The translations under genes and the position numbers were made by a program. DNA of 5,835 nucleotides. It comes from a virus. Lineage: Duplodnaviria > Heunggongvirae > Uroviricota > Caudoviricetes. The notes beneath the pieces were generated by a model. It was given only the letters and a program-made list of their open reading frames with translations. It did no database searches and was not told the origin of the DNA. The DNA is taken from IMG/VR virus record IMGVR_UViG_2671180758_000004; one strand, 5' to 3'. Positions 1,081 to 5,835 of this stretch are shown in pieces (position 1 is the first letter of the stretch; the number at the start of each line of letters is the position of its first letter).

Positions 1081-1272
1081 TTAAAGACCTGCCGGGATTT
1101 CGTTATTATCCTGGTGAATAACTTTATCGACCGGGTAACAGTTACCGGGAATTTTCTGTTCGGTTGCTGCAGTCACACACTCCTGCATTGTCCTGTGAAC
1201 ACTGACTGCAATATCAACTGGCTCTCCGGAAACAAGAAAAACTGTCAGAACAAGTGCAAATGCTGTATTCAT
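1081..1272 (-). CDS. ydfD: YdfD-like small lysis protein (63 aa) with N-terminal hydrophobic segment (MNTAFALVLTVFLVSG...)
   Basis: 63-aa ORF starting at ATG 1272..1270, which overlaps the dicB stop as ATGA (translational coupling). N-terminal hydrophobic helix. Size and position after dicB match ydfD. The longer 81-aa track ORF (to 1326) would overlap dicB and is less likely. Confidence 0.7.
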   Translation of the reverse strand: MNTAFALVLTVFLVSGEPVDIAVSVHRTMQECVTAATEQKIPGNCYPVDKVIHQDNNEIPAGL

Positions 1273-1457
1273 TGCCAGCATCCTTTTTGTATCGGACGTA
1301 AACGGGCCAGCATTGAAAGAATGCATATTTTATTTAATAGCTCCCGTTCGTGTTTTCTCTTGTTAATGGCATCTTCAGTAAATACAGGGTTACTGATAGT
1401 GACACCAATTTCAAAACAACCTTCAGACGTATTAACGTTTGGTAATAACGTTTCCAT
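1269..1457 (-). CDS. dicB: DicB cell-division inhibitor (62 aa)
   Basis: Translation METLLPNVNTSEGCFEIGVTISNPVFTEDAINKRKHERELLNKICILSMLARLRPIQKGCWQ closely matches my recollection of E. coli DicB. GAGGA RBS 7 nt upstream of ATG 1457..1455. The 97-aa track ORF is an upstream in-frame extension with no RBS. Confidence 0.9.
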   Translation of the reverse strand: METLLPNVNTSEGCFEIGVTISNPVFTEDAINKRKHERELLNKICILSMLARLRPIQKGCWQ

Positions 1458-1626
1458 TATCGCGTCCTCAACAATGAATTTTGTGATGTGGTGCCTGGTG
1501 CCTCCAGGTGACGTTAACCAGTTAACAATTAACGCCGGATACAGAGAATCCACCCATAACACTGTTTTTGGTTTTAACTGTTCCGCGTGCGCTCAGCCGC
1601 ATTCACCGCATCACAAAATTCACTTT

Positions 1627-2019: not shown

Positions 2020-2295
2020 ATGTCGACTGAAAATGATGAAATCATTAACTCCCTGATACGCCAGATTAATAATTTTGATAAAGCATTGCAACATGCTGCG
2101 GCGCGTAGTGATATAACTCTTTTAGCAATTTCATTTCTTGCATCTGTTATGGATAAAAATGAAGTCGTACGACAGAGTCTTGTTGATTATATCGACTCGC
2201 TTCAACCCGGCACTTTCAATCATGAGAGCTTCAATCATGAGAAAGAGCATGTTAAGTCTGTAATTAATTCTCTTATTTTGAATCAAAAGAATTAA
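2020..2295 (+). CDS. Hypothetical acidic small protein (91 aa), AT-rich cargo gene; function unknown
   Basis: ATG at 2020 preceded by a strong RBS, AGGAGG at 2009..2014 with 5-nt spacing. ORF ends TAA at 2293..2295 and is followed by an intrinsic terminator at 2323..2350. Local GC content is visibly lower than in flanking repeats. One short hydrophobic stretch (ITLLAISFLASVM), no clear transmembrane pair. Confidence 0.7.
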   Translation: MSTENDEIINSLIRQINNFDKALQHAAARSDITLLAISFLASVMDKNEVVRQSLVDYIDSLQPGTFNHESFNHEKEHVKSVINSLILNQKN

Positions 2296-2604: not shown

Positions 2605-2838
2605 TCAGTCAGTGTTTCTGGTTAACCAGCGACGCGCGCCAGCTTCAGTTTTAAACGTTTTGCTTCTGGTATATGTCATCGCGGTAAACGTGCCGTCCTG
2701 GTTGGGAAACACGCCGCATACCAGAGATTCGTTGTTGCCAAGCTCGATAGTATCCATGCTGACCTCATTTCCCCTTAACGCCGGGGTAGCGGAACAAAAA
2801 CCTGCTGCATAGTTATTAAAGTTGAACCCTGCCGTCAT
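2605..2838 (-). CDS. ydfA: YdfA/YdaF-family (DUF1391-like) small protein, copy 2; 77 aa from ATG 2838, or 50 aa from internal ATG 2757
   Basis: Paralogue of 772..1008 with 6 amino-acid differences plus a divergent C-terminus. First gene downstream of the predicted early-left promoter, the position ydfA occupies relative to dicA in Qin. Confidence 0.7.
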   Translation of the reverse strand: MTAGFNFNNYAAGFCSATPALRGNEVSMDTIELGNNESLVCGVFPNQDGTFTAMTYTRSKTFKTEAGARRWLTRNTD

Positions 2839-2893
2839 GTTCTTACGCCTCGGGCTGGCTACTTAACCCCTGACCACTGCCTGGTAACTCGAA
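2626..2893. repeat. Direct repeat B2: ydfA-like gene plus 55-bp leader (copy of 796..1063)
   Basis: See B1. Confidence 0.9.
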
Positions 2894-2935
2894 GTATTGC
2901 CCTGCATTCTGTGGGGTGGGGTGGGTGGCAGGTAT

Positions 2936-2980
2936 ATAATGTACTTTGCGTTCATTGTTGTAAAGTACTTTTAGTACATT
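2936..2980 (-). promoter_or_regulatory. Predicted early-left (dicB-operon type) promoter with flanking GTAC-centred operator half-sites
   Basis: On the minus strand: -35 TTTACA (2964..2959), 17-bp spacer, -10 CATTAT (2941..2936). AATGTACT at 2938..2945 overlaps the -10, its inverted copy AGTACATT is at 2973..2980, and the palindrome AAAGTACTTT is at 2962..2971. Sequence-only prediction. Confidence 0.45.
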
Positions 2981-3054
2981 CTGTGTGTAAAAAAATGAGA
3001 TGGGATAAAGTGAAGCACAAACCCGGAGGAAGGCGCTACCGGATTTATGCTGGT

Positions 3055-3474
3055 TTAAGAGGCTTTTTGTTTTTTCTTTCGTGCTAACTCTTCGTAAATT
3101 GCATTGTACTTCTGTTTTTTCTCTTCAAGAGTTTTTAAAAGTTCATCTGTCTCACTGTCAGGGAGCTCGTCCAGAAGGTCAATGATGATTTTTTGTCTTG
3201 GATTTAACTCCTGATAGAAACGTACCTGTCCACTTTCTTCTGTATCCTCTCCCAAAAGATAGGTTGGTGTTGTTCCTATTAGTGTTGCTAATTCCCTTAA
3301 TTTCTCCCGGCGAGGAATTGTTTCGCCATTAAACCATTTGCTAACCGCTTTTGGTGTTAATTTCATTCGACGGGCAATTTCTGCCTGCCTTCCATGTTGT
3401 TCATAACCAGCATTTTCACAGGCTAGCGCAAGCCTACTGGCGAACTCTTTACGCGCTTTATCTTCATGAACCAT
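3055..3474 (-). CDS. Prophage repressor, XRE-family HTH (RacR/DicA-like, 139 aa), no S24 peptidase domain apparent
   Basis: N-terminal HTH-like segment (QAEIARRMKLTPKAVSKWFNGETIP), charged C-terminal helix, AT-rich codon usage. Divergent from a Cro-like gene and upstream of a dicB-type operon. Weak RBS, consistent with repressor genes. Confidence 0.85.
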   Translation of the reverse strand: MVHEDKARKEFASRLALACENAGYEQHGRQAEIARRMKLTPKAVSKWFNGETIPRREKLRELATLIGTTPTYLLGEDTEESGQVRFYQELNPRQKIIIDLLDELPDSETDELLKTLEEKKQKYNAIYEELARKKKQKAS

Positions 3475-3494
3475 AAGTTCAATGATATTCGCTC

Positions 3495-3529
3495 TTGAAT
3501 GTACTGTCAGTTCTGTTATAGCATGTACT
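3495..3529 (+). promoter_or_regulatory. Predicted rightward promoter for the Cro-like gene with operator-like AATGTACT / ATGTACT repeats
   Basis: -35 TTGAAT (3495..3500), 16-bp spacer, -10 TATAGC (3517..3522). AATGTACT at 3498..3505 and ATGTACT at 3523..3529 share the motif found at the leftward promoter. A small palindrome TCACAtTGTGA lies at 3536..3546. Confidence 0.45.
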
Positions 3530-3553
3530 CAAAGTTCACATTGTGAGGGTGAT

Positions 3554-3808
3554 ATGAACCAGAAAACACTTGAAGATGTAATCAAAACTGTTCGCGTTGC
3601 TGTTGTGGCCGACGTTTGTGGTGTCAGCCAAAGAGCAATCTATAAATGGATGGATAACGGAAAATTGCCTCGCACAGAATATACCGGCGAAACAAATTAC
3701 GCTGAAAAAATCGCTCTTGCATCAAACGGATTATTTTCTGCCGATGCAATTTTAACTATTGGCAGGAATAAAACTACTACGAAAAAGCTGATGGGAGTTG
3801 ATTCATGA
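3554..3808 (+). CDS. ydaS: Cro-like HTH protein (YdaS-like, 84 aa)
   Basis: ATG 3554 with GAGGG RBS at 3545..3549. HTH-like segment VADVCGVSQRAIYKWMDNG. Divergent from the repressor. Its stop overlaps the next start as ATGA. The 108-aa track ORF from 3482 would begin inside the repressor start region without an RBS. Confidence 0.75.
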   Translation: MNQKTLEDVIKTVRVAVVADVCGVSQRAIYKWMDNGKLPRTEYTGETNYAEKIALASNGLFSADAILTIGRNKTTTKKLMGVDS

Positions 3809-4230
3809 AAATCAAGCATGAACACATCCGCATGGCGATGAATGCCTGGGCGCATCCGGACGGCGAAAAAGTACCGGCTGCGAAAATTACCAAAGCATAT
3901 TTCGAGCTGGGAATGACGTTCCCGGAACTGTATGACGACAGCCATCCGGAAGCCCTGGCTCGCAATACTCAGAAAATTTTCCGCTGGGTGGAGAAAGACA
4001 CCCCTGATGCGGTTAAAAAAATTCAGGCGTTGTTACCAGCTATCGAAAAAGCAATGCCACCTCTGCTGGTGGCCCGAATGCGCAGTCATAGCTCAGCCTA
4101 TTTTCGGGAACTAGTGGAGACGCGGGAACGACTGGTGAGAGACGCTGATGATTTTGTCGCAGTGGCGATCGCTGGTTTCAACCAGATGAATCGTGGTGGC
4201 CCTGCAGGAAATATTGTGGCTGTGCATTGA
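3805..4230 (+). CDS. ydaT: YdaT-like protein (141 aa), CII-position gene of the Rac-type module
   Basis: ATG 3805 overlaps the ydaS-like stop (ATGA). Size and position match ydaT as I recall it. Sequence-level identity to K-12 YdaT is from memory and unverified. Confidence 0.7.
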   Translation: MKIKHEHIRMAMNAWAHPDGEKVPAAKITKAYFELGMTFPELYDDSHPEALARNTQKIFRWVEKDTPDAVKKIQALLPAIEKAMPPLLVARMRSHSSAYFRELVETRERLVRDADDFVAVAIAGFNQMNRGGPAGNIVAVH

Positions 4231-4301: not shown

Positions 4302-5372
4302 ATGGCTAACGCCTGGCTCAGATTATGGCATGACATGCCAAATGACCCTAAGTGGCGAACAATTGCCAGGGTGTCAGGGCAGCCAATTGCAACAGTGATG
4401 GCAGTGTATATCCACCTCCTGGTGAGCGCGTCACGAAATGTCACGCGAGGTCACATTGATGTCACGACAGAAGATTTGGCAAGTGCGCTCGACGTGACAG
4501 AAGAGGTAATTGATTCAATTTTGCAGACGATGCAGGGGCGGGTACTTGATGGTGATTTAATCACTGGATGGGAAAAACGCCAGGTGCTTAAAGAGGACAA
4601 CGGCAATATTTCGCAAACCGCAAAATCTCCTGCAGAGCGCAAGAGGGCGCAGCGAGAGAGGGAAAGAAAGCGGGAACAAAATGGCGATTGTCACGGCGCG
4701 TCACGAAATGTCACGCACATGTCACGACGAGTCACGACAGATAAAGATACAGATAAAGATACAGATCAAGAAGATCAAAACACTATGGTCCATGGCGTAA
4801 AAAACGCCACGAACCAGGCAGGGGATGTTCAGACCGTCAATCCTGGTCAGCCAGCAGGCACGACACCGGAAGCCGATTCAGCGTATGCGCTGAAAGCCGA
4901 TTCGGGCGCTGTGCAGCAGGTGATGACCGCAAGGCCGGAGCAATCACACCAACTGCAGCAGCCCGAAGCCGATTCCGCCATTCAGCGGGAAGCCGATCGG
5001 GTAGTCCCGGAAAACACCGGTCAGTCTGTGGGACGAGTGGATTATCCGGATGTGTTCGAACAGGTCTGGCGGGAGTACCCGTTGCGTGCCGGAGCAAACC
5101 CGAAGAAATCCGCTTTCAGTGCCTGGAAGGCCAGATTACGCGAGGGGGTGCCACCAGAGGCCATGCTGGATGGCGTGAGGCGTTACGCAAGATACTTGGC
5201 GGCTACCGGGAAAGCGGGAACGGAATTTGTTCAGCGAGCGACGACGTTTTTTGGACCGGACCGGAATTTTGAGAACCCCTGGTTTCTCCCGGTAAGCGGC
5301 ACGAACAACCAGCGTTGTGTGAATCATATTACTGAACCGGATAACGAAATTCCGCCGGGCTTCAGGGGGTAA
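4302..5372 (+). CDS. ydaU: YdaU-like phage replication initiator (lambda O-like role), 356 aa, with a low-complexity central linker
   Basis: ATG 4302 with AAGAGG RBS (4291..4296). Two iteron arrays and an AT-rich tract lie inside the coding sequence, as for ori-lambda inside gene O. Central region is charged and repetitive (ERKRAQRERERKRE, DKDTDKDTD, PEADSA repeats). Confidence 0.8.
   Translation: MANAWLRLWHDMPNDPKWRTIARVSGQPIATVMAVYIHLLVSASRNVTRGHIDVTTEDLASALDVTEEVIDSILQTMQGRVLDGDLITGWEKRQVLKEDNGNISQTAKSPAERKRAQRERERKREQNGDCHGASRNVTHMSRRVTTDKDTDKDTDQEDQNTMVHGVKNATNQAGDVQTVNPGQPAGTTPEADSAYALKADSGAVQQVMTARPEQSHQLQQPEADSAIQREADRVVPENTGQSVGRVDYPDVFEQVWREYPLRAGANPKKSAFSAWKARLREGVPPEAMLDGVRRYARYLAATGKAGTEFVQRATTFFGPDRNFENPWFLPVSGTNNQRCVNHITEPDNEIPPGFRG
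4426..4466 (+). repeat. Iteron array 1: four GTCAC(G/A) repeats in helical phase (4430, 4440, 4450, 4461), plus an inverted copy at 4493..4498
   Basis: Direct repeats spaced 10-11 bp. The 21-mer GCGCGTCACGAAATGTCACGC (4426..4446) is repeated exactly at 4696..4716. Confidence 0.8.
4690..4790 (+). other. Putative prophage origin of replication: iteron array 2 (five GTCACG repeats at 4690, 4700, 4710, 4721, 4731) followed by an AT-rich tract with tandem GATAAAGATACA x2 and two GATC sites
   Basis: Perfect 10/10/11/10-bp phasing of five identical hexamers. Adjacent AT-rich tract with GATAAAGATACA at 4740..4751 and 4752..4763 and GATC at 4764..4767 and 4773..4776. Architecture parallels ori-lambda inside the initiator gene. 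Confidence 0.7.
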
Positions 5373-5412: not shown

Positions 5413-5835
5413 GTGGCAAAAGTTTTTACACAAGAAGAGCGGGAAAAAATTAAAGGGCTGATCGTGGAATTCGTACGCCTTAACGGACGAGGCACGATTC
5501 GGCAGTTATCGGATGAAATTGGTGTCAGTCATGCGTCTGTCGGTCGTTTATGCATGGAGCTGGCCGCCAGTGGTGATGTTTACAATTCCGGTTACGGAGT
5601 ATTCCCGTCTGAGCAGGCGCGCAAGGACTGGCAAAACGCCCGCAAAAAACTCTCAAGGGCAAAGCTGAAGAAACCATCTGTGGTTGATCCGGACCTTATC
5701 TGGCTATTACCAGACGGCGAAATACGCCGCTACGACAGGCGCCTAAACATAATCTGTCGCGAGTGCCGGAAGAGCGAAGCTATGCAGCGTGTACTGGCAT
5801 TTTATCAAGGAAATGTTAGGTATTTTAGACGTTAC
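5413..5835 (+). CDS. Hypothetical protein with putative winged-helix/HTH segment, 5' portion only (ORF runs off the right edge); occupies the position after the initiator gene
   Basis: Open frame from GTG 5413 to the window end (141 codons, no stop). AGGAGG at 5403..5408, 4 nt upstream. HTH-like segment IRQLSDEIGVSHASVGRLCMELAASGDV. No Walker A motif in the visible part, so not obviously DnaC-like. Confidence 0.55.
   Translation, partial: MAKVFTQEEREKIKGLIVEFVRLNGRGTIRQLSDEIGVSHASVGRLCMELAASGDVYNSGYGVFPSEQARKDWQNARKKLSRAKLKKPSVVDPDLIWLLPDGEIRRYDRRLNIICRECRKSEAMQRVLAFYQGNVRYFRRY

Follow-up and report, generated by a model that had tools for sequence, protein, structure and literature searches.

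GTAC motifs flanking a short repressor gene as very likely half-sites of HK022-type operators in a lambdoid immunity region

The GTAC-centred motifs in the two control regions around a phage repressor gene are very likely half-sites of five HK022-type 15-bp operators, which flank the gene and would together form a lambdoid immunity switch. We studied them in a window of 5,835 nucleotides, i.e., the whole stretch of DNA analysed here (Caudoviricetes; IMG/VR record IMGVR_UViG_2671180758_000004). A preceding sequence-only reading had assigned the motifs, as operators, to the adjacent HTH repressor, the Cro-like protein or both. Given the homology of the sites to oR1-3 and oL1-2 as well as that of the two proteins to HK022 CI and Cro, this is the interpretation best supported by the sequence comparisons. 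The module reads as an ordinary lambdoid immunity switch, whose sole unusual feature would be that its repressor is short and has no self-cleavage domain.

Operator and promoter map

The true unit behind the motifs is a 15-bp dyad, TG(A/T)AC-N5-GT(A/T)CA (TGWAC-N5-GTWCA). Its instances are listed below together with the promoters and the two regulatory genes; mismatches refer to the dyad.

2940..2954: putative operator OL1, TGTACTTTGCGTTCA, 0 mismatches, aligns with HK75 oL1 TGTACCTAAAGTTCA
2964..2978: putative operator OL2, AGTACTTTTAGTACA, 1 mismatch, aligns with HK75 oL2 AGTACCAGTAGTACA
3467..3481: putative operator OR3, TGAACCATAAGTTCA, identical to HK022 oR3 and oR1
3500..3514: putative operator OR2, TGTACTGTCAGTTCT, 1 mismatch, aligns with HK022 oR2 TGTACTATCAGTTCC
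3524..3538: putative operator OR1, TGTACTCAAAGTTCA, 0 mismatches, aligns with HK022 oR1
2936..2964, minus strand: predicted promoter pL, -35 TTTACA (2964..2959), 17-bp spacer, -10 CATTAT (2941..2936)
3482..3510, minus strand: predicted repressor maintenance promoter PM, -35 CTGACA (3510..3505), 17-bp spacer, -10 TATCAT (3487..3482)
3496..3523, plus strand: promoter pR, -35 TTGAAT (3496-3501), -10 TATAGC (3518-3523), placed by alignment to the annotated HK022 pR
3055..3474, minus strand: immunity repressor, 139 aa, HK022-CI-type HTH N-terminal domain and DicA-like short helical tail
3554..3808, plus strand: Cro-like protein, 84 aa, Shine-Dalgarno sequence GAGGG at 3545-3549

As had been proposed, the sites lie close to -35/-10 elements, and they bracket the predicted pL, pR and PM. 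On the left, OL1 sits in the pL spacer and reaches 2 nt into the pL -10 hexamer, while OL2, which starts 24 bp from the OL1 start, abuts or overlaps the pL -35. This 24-bp spacing is also found in HK75 as well as in Citrobacter and Klebsiella phages. The predicted pL, with an expected start at about 2929, shows 9/12 consensus matches in the promoter scan and is colinear with the annotated HK75 pL. The genes it would drive are ydfA-like, orf110, DicF, dicB and ydfD.

On the right, OR3 lies across the start codon of the repressor gene (ATG 3474..3472), OR2 overlaps the pR -35 hexamer and fills the pR spacer, and OR1 is located directly 3' of the pR -10 hexamer such that it covers the expected start site (about 3530). 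The consensus scan returned exactly two minus-strand promoters, pL and PM, both bracketed by operators; it missed pR because the poor pR -10 ends in C. We infer PM from its 10/12 consensus matches and from the equal geometry in HK022. Its -35 is inside the OR2 spacer and its -10 ends 7 nt before the repressor ATG, with no Shine-Dalgarno sequence in between. The repressor mRNA is therefore probably leaderless, judging from this arrangement, with a predicted start at 3474/3475. A literature search on HK022 leaderless mRNA returned nothing useful.

Two details of the map count against the operator reading as a whole. First, the predicted PM -35 is within OR2, the centre of which is at about -33, which is not easily reconciled with repressor expression under OR2 occupancy. 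Second, TATAGC is a poor -10 hexamer for pR.

Enrichment of the motif and the dyad

All five motif instances of the sequence-only reading were checked and lie where it had placed them, i.e., AATGTACT at 2938-2945 and 3498-3505, AAAGTACTTT at 2962-2971, AGTACATT at 2973-2980 and ATGTACT at 3523-3529. The motifs are real, but their boundaries had been set wrongly and they are half-sites only. That is, they represent the left halves of OL1, OR2 and OR1 as well as both halves of OL2, while the GTTCA/GTTCT right halves and the entire OR3, which has no GTAC core, had been overlooked. Also wrong was the statement that GTAC is G/C-flanked elsewhere: 7 GTACs of the window are A/T-flanked on both sides and 2/7 are found outside the control regions, namely at 3106 (within the repressor gene) and 5791.

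Next, we compared observed and expected counts within the window. Counted over both strands, ATGTACT is found 4 times in total with an expectation of 0.38 (0/200 shuffles reach 4), and 4/4 copies are within the two control regions. Allowing for at most one mismatch, the dyad has 5 matches where 0.51 are expected (0/200 shuffles reach 5); again, all five are within the control regions, three of them perfect. No enrichment is observed for GTAC by itself (19 vs. 13.3 expected) or for ATGTACT with one mismatch (15 vs. 12.2).

The latter two counts, together with the two A/T-flanked GTACs outside the control regions, are what one would see if the motifs had arisen by chance in promoter DNA that is rich in AT, with no specific protein binding to them. 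We give this explanation next to no probability, given the excess of exact ATGTACT and of the dyad, the positions and spacings that are kept across five genera, and a polymorphism that avoids the half-sites (both detailed below). The GTAC motifs are half-sites of real elements.

The inverted GTAC repeats at 2941-2968 could also be read as the hairpin of a plus-strand intrinsic terminator, as a terminator scan picks up a stem of 10 pairs there, 3 of them GC, with the T-run TTTTAGTACA behind it. This single match compares to 1.1 expected in shuffled sequence, however, and the stem is AT-rich with no convergent plus-strand gene directly upstream. Furthermore, the stem arms coincide with the palindromic half-sites of OL1 and OL2, which leaves the terminator barely credible.

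Correspondence to the HK022 and HK75 operators

The HK022 immunity region is reportedly covered by Oberto et al. 1989 (record X16093) and by Carlson & Little 1993 (cited in PMC8053113). For the comparison, we used the HK022/HK75 operator positions from the GenBank annotations X16093 and HM173637 as well as from PMC8053113.

Window positions 3314-3539 show about 73% DNA identity to the cI N-terminus and oR of HK022/HK75, and the annotated HK022 oR1, oR2 and oR3 align gap-free onto 3524-3538, 3500-3514 and 3467-3481, respectively. The pL/oL1/oL2 block can be aligned to HK75 and to the Citrobacter and Klebsiella phages; as in HK022/HK75, the OL1/OL2 pair is 24 bp apart around the pL -35/-10 hexamers. 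Measured from start to start, the sites are 33 and 24 bp apart in OR and 24 bp apart in OL, and the Escherichia phages HK022 and HK75 agree in this with those of Citrobacter, Klebsiella and Providencia; site spacing is identical across phages of five genera. With HK022, the window shares the 15-bp dyads (OR3 base for base), the number of OR sites with their spacing, and an OR3 that covers the start of the repressor gene. In sequence, number, spacing and promoter-relative position, the sites are homologous to the annotated oR1-3 and oL1-2 of HK022 and HK75.

HK022 CI binds cooperatively to adjacent operators and loops from OL to OR (PMC8053113), and HK022 repression is described as relying on strong cooperativity (PMC8053113). 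The 24-bp spacing of both OL1/OL2 and OR2/OR1 is the one at which HK022 CI shows cooperative binding.

The window also differs from its relatives. HK022, HK75 and the Citrobacter and Klebsiella phages have a distal OL3 and an OFR site, both of which are absent from the window: no site with at most 2 mismatches was found for OL3 (about 53 bp beyond OL2) within 2979-3466, nor for OFR downstream of cro up to 5789. A literature search on the OFR site turned up nothing. Downstream of the window's pL, no HK022 put-like RNA was found; the alignment breaks directly past the promoter and the pL leader folds no better than shuffled sequence (z = +1.64). While the HK022 region is flanked by nun/cIII and cII/O/P, the window has flanks of Rac/Qin type, with ydfA-DicF-dicB on the left and ydaT and ydaU on the right.

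Distribution and conservation of the sites

The region is found in 1047/5426 complete E. coli genomes (about 19%) and, with 99% identity, in the complete phage Tritos (46,360 bp), for which a literature search found nothing useful. Within the Tritos genome, 4/7 ATGTACT copies fall into the two control regions, as do all 3 perfect dyad matches.

Across 53 unique close variants, variation is seen at 1/45 half-site positions compared to 21/80 positions in spacers and flanks, with a p-value of 3e-4 that is approximate because the sequences are related. The OL1 half-sites are almost invariant while the OL1 spacer varies, and OR3 shows zero polymorphism. In the window's lineage, purifying selection acts on the half-sites of the operators. 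The repressor ORF is likewise intact and nearly invariant.

A search for related loci with the repressor alone returned near-identical loci only. Sequence diversity was obtained by scanning viral contigs for a DNA pattern of the OR architecture, which yielded at least 120 contigs. For those dyad positions that the pattern itself had fixed, the information content of this set is circular. The following observations relate to what the pattern left free, each among the matches listed. The OR2 spacer TnTCAG is near-invariant in 85 unique OR regions, and OL1/OL2 pairs, which are outside the search pattern, are found downstream of the repressor gene. The flanking repressors have a median N-terminal domain identity of 49% to the window repressor and differ in their C-terminal domains. 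Of the 69 unique ones with a readable ORF, 68 show the helix motif TPKAxSKWxN.E and 65 the stricter TPKAxSKWxNGE.

Repressor and Cro-like protein

The N-terminal domain of the window repressor is 47% identical to HK022 CI over 99 aa (E 6e-32), with an almost identical recognition helix (TPKAVSKWFNGE in the window repressor vs. TPKAISKWFNGE in HK022 CI). Beyond residue ~100, no similarity to HK022 CI was found. HK022 CI has 235 aa, with the autocleavage domain Peptidase_S24 at residues 101-223, whereas the 139-aa window repressor hits HTH_3 only in Pfam, without an S24 peptidase domain, and ends in a DicA-like tail. The Cro-like protein and HK022 Cro share 60% identity across 73 aa (E 1e-33).

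Compared to K-12 DicA, the repressor shows 29% identity over residues 30-137 (E 5e-15), tail included. The NCBIfam DicA model (NF007257) scores 56.8 bits, which is below its cutoff of 101. By these scores, we class the repressor as a relative of DicA and not as a member of the DicA subfamily. A PDB sequence search with the repressor retrieved the P22 C2 N-terminal domain only and thus no structural precedent for the tail. A single-sequence AlphaFold model reaches a pLDDT of 53, such that only its helix pattern was used, as a weak indication.

The repressor falls into the class of short prophage repressors of DicA/RacR/Gifsy type (~135-160 aa, N-terminal HTH, short tail, no Ala-Gly/S24 module; PMC3121763, PMC10448788). 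To this class belong the Gifsy-type repressors GfoR and GftR, which are under the control of LexA-regulated antirepressors (PMC3121763). They resemble the window repressor, a comparison made via DicA only, in their ~136-150 aa with HTH and short tail as well as in lacking an Ala-Gly/S24 module.

Comparison with the Qin and Rac prophages

The DicA/DicC system of Qin, a cryptic prophage of E. coli K-12 in which it controls the dicBF operon, is similar to the window in its short HTH repressor with homologous C-terminal tail and no autocleavage motif, its divergent cro-like gene, and its codirectional ydfA...DicF-dicB-ydfD genes behind a repressor-controlled promoter. It differs in the DNA-binding domain, i.e., the N-terminal domain of DicA goes along with TGTTAG-N6-CTAACA operators. 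These have 3 matches in the Qin dicA region but none in the window at up to 2 mismatches, while no TGWAC dyads are found in the Qin dicA region. Operator specificity follows the N-terminal domain of the repressor.

The DicA comparison also bears on whether the operators are used effectively by Cro only, with a short repressor that binds weakly or non-cooperatively and a prophage that is otherwise silenced. The domain swap that removed the S24-type domain, the missing OL3 and OFR sites, and the reliance of HK022 repression on strong cooperativity (PMC8053113) are in favour of this alternative. On the other hand, DicA with the same type of tail strongly represses its own operon (PMC10448788), the module is widespread among the complete E. 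coli genomes and present in the complete phage Tritos, the repressor ORF is preserved, and the half-sites are under purifying selection. We consider a Cro-only use of the sites very unlikely.

With Rac racR-ydaS-ydaT and CP-933P YdaT, the window shares the arrangement of divergent repressor, cro-like gene, ydaT and replication genes. It is unlike Rac in that its repressor and Cro are of HK022 type in place of RacR and YdaS. The window has a YdaT homologue of its own (3805-4230), and the footprint of Rac YdaT includes the racR-ydaS intergenic promoter region besides its own box (PMC11879457), so the sites might be bound by this downstream-encoded CII-like protein instead of repressor or Cro. 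However, the YdaT box is defined as TTGATT-N6-AATCAA (PMC11879457), an inverted repeat to which the GTAC dyads do not fit. A perfect copy, the only one in the window, is located at 3798-3815 over the ydaT start codon. Moreover, TGWAC dyads with HK022-type repressors are also found in HK022 and HK75, which have a lambda-type cII and no ydaT. YdaT is thus very unlikely to be the protein that binds the dyads.

Proposed switch and its implications

Returning to repressor and Cro, we infer that dimers of the 139-aa repressor would bind the dyads via their HK022-CI-type helix-turn-helix. Occupation of OL1 and OL2 would occlude pL and with it the ydfA-DicF-dicB-ydfD operon, while occupation of OR1 and OR2 would occlude pR, i.e., cro, ydaT and the replication genes. 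Negative autoregulation is suggested by OR3, which lies over both the start codon of the repressor gene and the predicted 5' end of the leaderless mRNA. The HK022-type Cro homologue would be expected on the same sites, setting the opposite state. Since the HK022 CI C-terminal domain, which mediates dimerisation and cooperativity, is replaced in the window repressor, cooperative pairwise binding and OL-OR looping are not to be assumed.

The idea that one immunity switch controls both operons, including a duplicated dicB-type operon, holds with one qualification. It fits the pL/pR geometry, and both DicF gene copies are downstream of pL; but only the proximal module is directly behind the operators, and the second dicF-module copy (784-1063) comes without promoter and operators.

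Given the lack of an S24 autocleavage domain and the DicA-like tail, what flips the switch is probably not RecA-stimulated self-cleavage but an antirepressor or some other factor that acts in trans. No antirepressor gene is found in the window, and among the 10 of 15 tblastn records listed for the Rem antirepressor, none is from Tritos. TRITO_42, which occupies the rem position in Tritos, is unrelated.

The module may be a natural domain swap in which the operator specificity of HK022, represented by the N-terminal domain, Cro and the five operators, is joined to a DicA-type tail, a reading we hold tentatively and at slightly less than even probability. If it is true, homo-immunity with HK022-type phages would be expected of the prophage, and its repressor would be blind to RecA-stimulated autocleavage. 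The inducer would be trans-acting, with an antirepressor or an ImmA/IrrE-like peptidase encoded elsewhere in Tritos (TRITO_41) as candidates, and the 24-bp paired-operator geometry would work with an unrelated oligomerisation domain. The operator map itself predicts cross-immunity with HK022-type phages. With five 15-bp sites and three promoters, it supplies targets for reporter and mutagenesis work on a region present in about one fifth of complete E. coli genomes.

Operators and promoters of the two control regions

By homology, the GTAC motifs of the two control regions belong to a set of HK022-type operators, carried by a mosaic prophage. Phage genomes were searched by sensitive blastn, where window positions 3314-3539 share about 73% identity with the cI N-terminus and oR region of the lambdoid phages HK022 and HK75. 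The sites oR1, oR2 and oR3 are annotated in both records, and the alignment runs without gaps through the operators, which in HK022 are 15-bp dyads (oR3 and oR1 TGAACCATAAGTTCA; oR2 TGTACTATCAGTTCC). On the left side, OL1, OL2 and the predicted early promoter pL align with HK75 oL1 (TGTACCTAAAGTTCA), oL2 (AGTACCAGTAGTACA) and pL.

Predicted operators and promoters with the adjacent genes (window coordinates)
2940-2954: OL1, TGTACTTTGCGTTCA
2964-2978: OL2, AGTACTTTTAGTACA
2964..2936, minus: pL (predicted), -35 TTTACA 2964..2959, 17-bp spacer, -10 CATTAT ending at 2936; consensus scan
3474..3055, minus: HTH repressor, 139 aa
3467-3481: OR3, TGAACCATAAGTTCA
3510..3482, minus: repressor promoter (predicted), -35 CTGACA 3510..3505, 17-bp spacer, -10 TATCAT ending at 3482; consensus scan
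3496-3523, plus: pR (predicted), -35 TTGAAT 3496-3501, -10 TATAGC 3518-3523; alignment to HK022
3500-3514: OR2, TGTACTGTCAGTTCT
3524-3538: OR1, TGTACTCAAAGTTCA
3554-3808, plus: cro-like gene

The sequence-only reading had proposed the GTAC motifs as operators, and every motif it listed was found at its coordinates. For OL1, OR2 and OR1 they represent the left half-site only, for OL2 both half-sites; the GTTCA right halves went unnoticed, as did the entire OR3, whose half-site has TGAAC in place of TGTAC. The motifs are half-sites of the putative operators, and the full element is the 15-bp dyad, whose symmetric consensus is TGAAC-N5-GTTCA with TGTAC as an accepted half-site variant. The operator observation as a whole is real and essentially rightly interpreted, though incomplete.

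A chance origin of the motifs is ruled out by motif statistics and conservation. GTAC as such is not enriched in the window (19 observed vs. 13.3 expected), and the statement that all other copies are G/C-flanked is inexact, since TGTACT has further copies at 3105-3110 and 5790-5795. Exact ATGTACT, however, is found 4 times (0.38 expected) and TGWAC-N5-GTWCA with at most one mismatch 5 times (0.51 expected); none of 200 shuffles reaches either count, and all copies of both lie inside the two control regions. In the complete genome of Escherichia phage Tritos (OV696610.1), 3/3 perfect dyads are inside the control regions, with only five single, scattered one-mismatch matches in the remaining 45.7 kb.

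A consensus scan of 2800-3620 yields exactly two sigma-70-like promoters, both on the minus strand, i.e., pL and the repressor promoter. OL1 lies within the pL spacer and OL2 adjoins the -35 hexamer. In the repressor promoter, the -10 element stops 7 nt short of the repressor ATG, which no Shine-Dalgarno sequence precedes, such that a leaderless repressor mRNA is likely, as for lambda PRM; HK022 has the same geometry. OR2, centred at about -33, holds the -35-like CTGACA in its spacer. On the pR side, OR2 overlaps the -35 element and spacer, and the start site expected for pR falls within OR1; the pR -10 is weak and does not pass the scan rule. A terminator-like hairpin at 2941-2968 was rejected: it is as frequent in shuffled sequence, and its arms are the palindromic half-sites.

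Downstream of pL, a G-rich tract (GGGGTGGGGTGGGTGG) occupies 2906-2930 on the plus strand, so that the pL transcript begins with a C-rich, G-poor stretch. The tract shows indel polymorphism in close variants (2913, 2923, after 2925) and could be a Rho-utilisation-like leader. No significant RNA structure was found for the pL leader (z = +1.64).

Conservation of the operator architecture

The start-to-start distances (OR3-OR2 33 bp, OR2-OR1 24 bp, OL1-OL2 24 bp) are identical in HK022, HK75, Tritos, Citrobacter phage Omnitron, Klebsiella phages and Providencia phage PSTNGR2lys. The motif search across homologous immunity regions recovers the OR architecture in at least 120 viral contigs, with 85 unique OR regions among the matches listed. 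Among these matches, the flanking repressors measure 226-292 aa; the exceptions are four unique 139-aa proteins like that of the window. TPKAxSKWxN.E is found in 68/69 unique repressors (in 65 as TPKAxSKWxNGE), although the median N-terminal identity of the flanking repressors to the window repressor is 49%. Information content is circular at the dyad positions specified in the search but not at free ones, such as the OR2 spacer TnTCAG, which is nearly invariant in the 85 unique OR regions among the matches listed.

OL1/OL2 pairs, which lay outside the search pattern, occur at 24 bp no more than 600 nt past the repressor stop codon in 20/64 loci among the matches listed (estimated chance expectation <0.01 pairs). 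A further 25 such pairs lie elsewhere in these loci, where gene insertions have probably moved the OL sites away. In 53 unique close variants, the substitutions are located in spacers and flanks of the operators (2948, 2949, 2955-2958, 2969-2973); counting minor alleles seen at least twice, 1/45 half-site positions vary vs. 21/80 in spacers and flanks (Fisher p = 3e-4, approximate given related sequences).

Repressor, Cro and the proposed switch

The N-terminal ~100 residues of the repressor resemble HK022 CI (47% over 99 aa, E 6e-32; recognition helix TPKAVSKWFNGE vs. TPKAISKWFNGE), while past them no similarity to HK022 CI was found. HK022 CI has a Peptidase_S24 domain, which the window repressor lacks. 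Its C-terminal tail resembles that of DicA from the Qin cryptic prophage (29% over residues 30-137, E 5e-15; common pattern LPxSExD...EEL); the NCBIfam DicA model scores 56.8 bits, under its 101-bit cutoff. A single-sequence AlphaFold model of low quality (pLDDT 53) suggests no more than a helix pattern, with five helices in the N-terminal part and, past a linker, two in the C-terminal part. Qin has TGTTAG-N6-CTAACA dyads at both control regions and zero TGWAC dyads, while the window shows the opposite; the operator type goes with the N-terminal domain.

The Cro-like protein shares 60% identity with HK022 Cro. Its Tritos counterpart is annotated with 108 aa from a start equivalent to 3482, upstream of pR. 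HK022 Cro alignment and a Shine-Dalgarno GAGGG (3545-3549) favour ATG 3554 (84 aa), and the Tritos annotation is probably an over-extension.

Repressor dimers at OL1/OL2 and OR1/OR2 would switch off pL and pR, OR3 across the repressor start would provide negative autoregulation, and Cro on the same sites would set the opposite state. For HK022 CI, cooperative binding to adjacent operators and OL-OR looping are described (summarised in PMC8053113). Compared to HK022, the window lacks the distal OL3, OFR and, since homology stops directly after pL, any put-like sequence; its neighbouring operons are of Rac/Qin type.

A moderately interesting twist of this operator set is its short, non-cleavable repressor. 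Short DicA/RacR/Gifsy-type repressors are not cleaved but inactivated by antirepressors (PMC10448788; PMC3121763), e.g., DicA by Rem (PMC10448788). No Rem homologue was found in Tritos among the matches listed. A candidate inactivator is TRITO_41 (OV696610.1, 36945-38090), which joins an ImmA/IrrE-type metallopeptidase to an XRE HTH.

That the GTAC dyads are YdaT sites is excluded, since the YdaT box is TTGATT-N6-AATCAA (PMC11879457). A perfect copy of it (TTGATTCATGAAAATCAA; 1 match vs. 0.04 expected) lies at 3798-3815 and contains the ydaT start codon (3805) in its spacer, in agreement with the YdaT site of CP-933P and Rac (PMC11879457). By analogy to Rac, the box suggests that the repressor has a second, reverse promoter within the cro-like gene, CII-like in type and activated by YdaT.

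Gene map and occurrence

The window represents a prophage immunity region, the prophage being lambdoid and Rac/Qin-like. Region 2840-3560 is present in 1047/5426 complete E. coli genomes (coverage at least 80%) and 99.2% identical to Tritos, a complete lambdoid phage of 46 kb.

Flanking genes and repeats (leftward operon listed from pL)
2838..2605, minus: ydfA/DUF1391 gene
left of it, minus: orf110, then DicF
1-51 and 1632-1683, minus: the two DicF sRNA genes (Rfam RF00039)
1463..1269, minus: dicB (DicB domain)
after dicB, minus: ydfD/DUF1482
beyond ydfD, minus: second, partial ydfA...DicF module
1-300 = 1633-1932: duplicated block, 100% identical
784-1063 ~ 2614-2893: duplicated block, 94% identical
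3805-4230, plus: ydaT
4302-5372, plus: replication-initiator gene

Two DicF genes (69.6 and 72.5 bits) are present because the ydfA...DicF module occurs twice. The distal copy is without pL and operators and would therefore be expressed by read-through only. The best E. coli genome matches cover about 5.16 kb of the 5.8-kb query; the duplication is thus not universal. A 91-aa ORF (MSTENDEIINSLIRQ...) at 2020-2295 (plus), located between orf110 and DicF copy 1 and antisense to the pL operon, has no PHROG match; it may be spurious or else a moron gene. The ydfA-like ORF 2605-2838 is listed with 77 aa from ATG 2838; K-12 YdfA (51 aa) and a Shine-Dalgarno-like AAGGGGAAATGAGG favour the internal start MDTIELGNN, and the first 26 codons are probably non-coding leader sequence.
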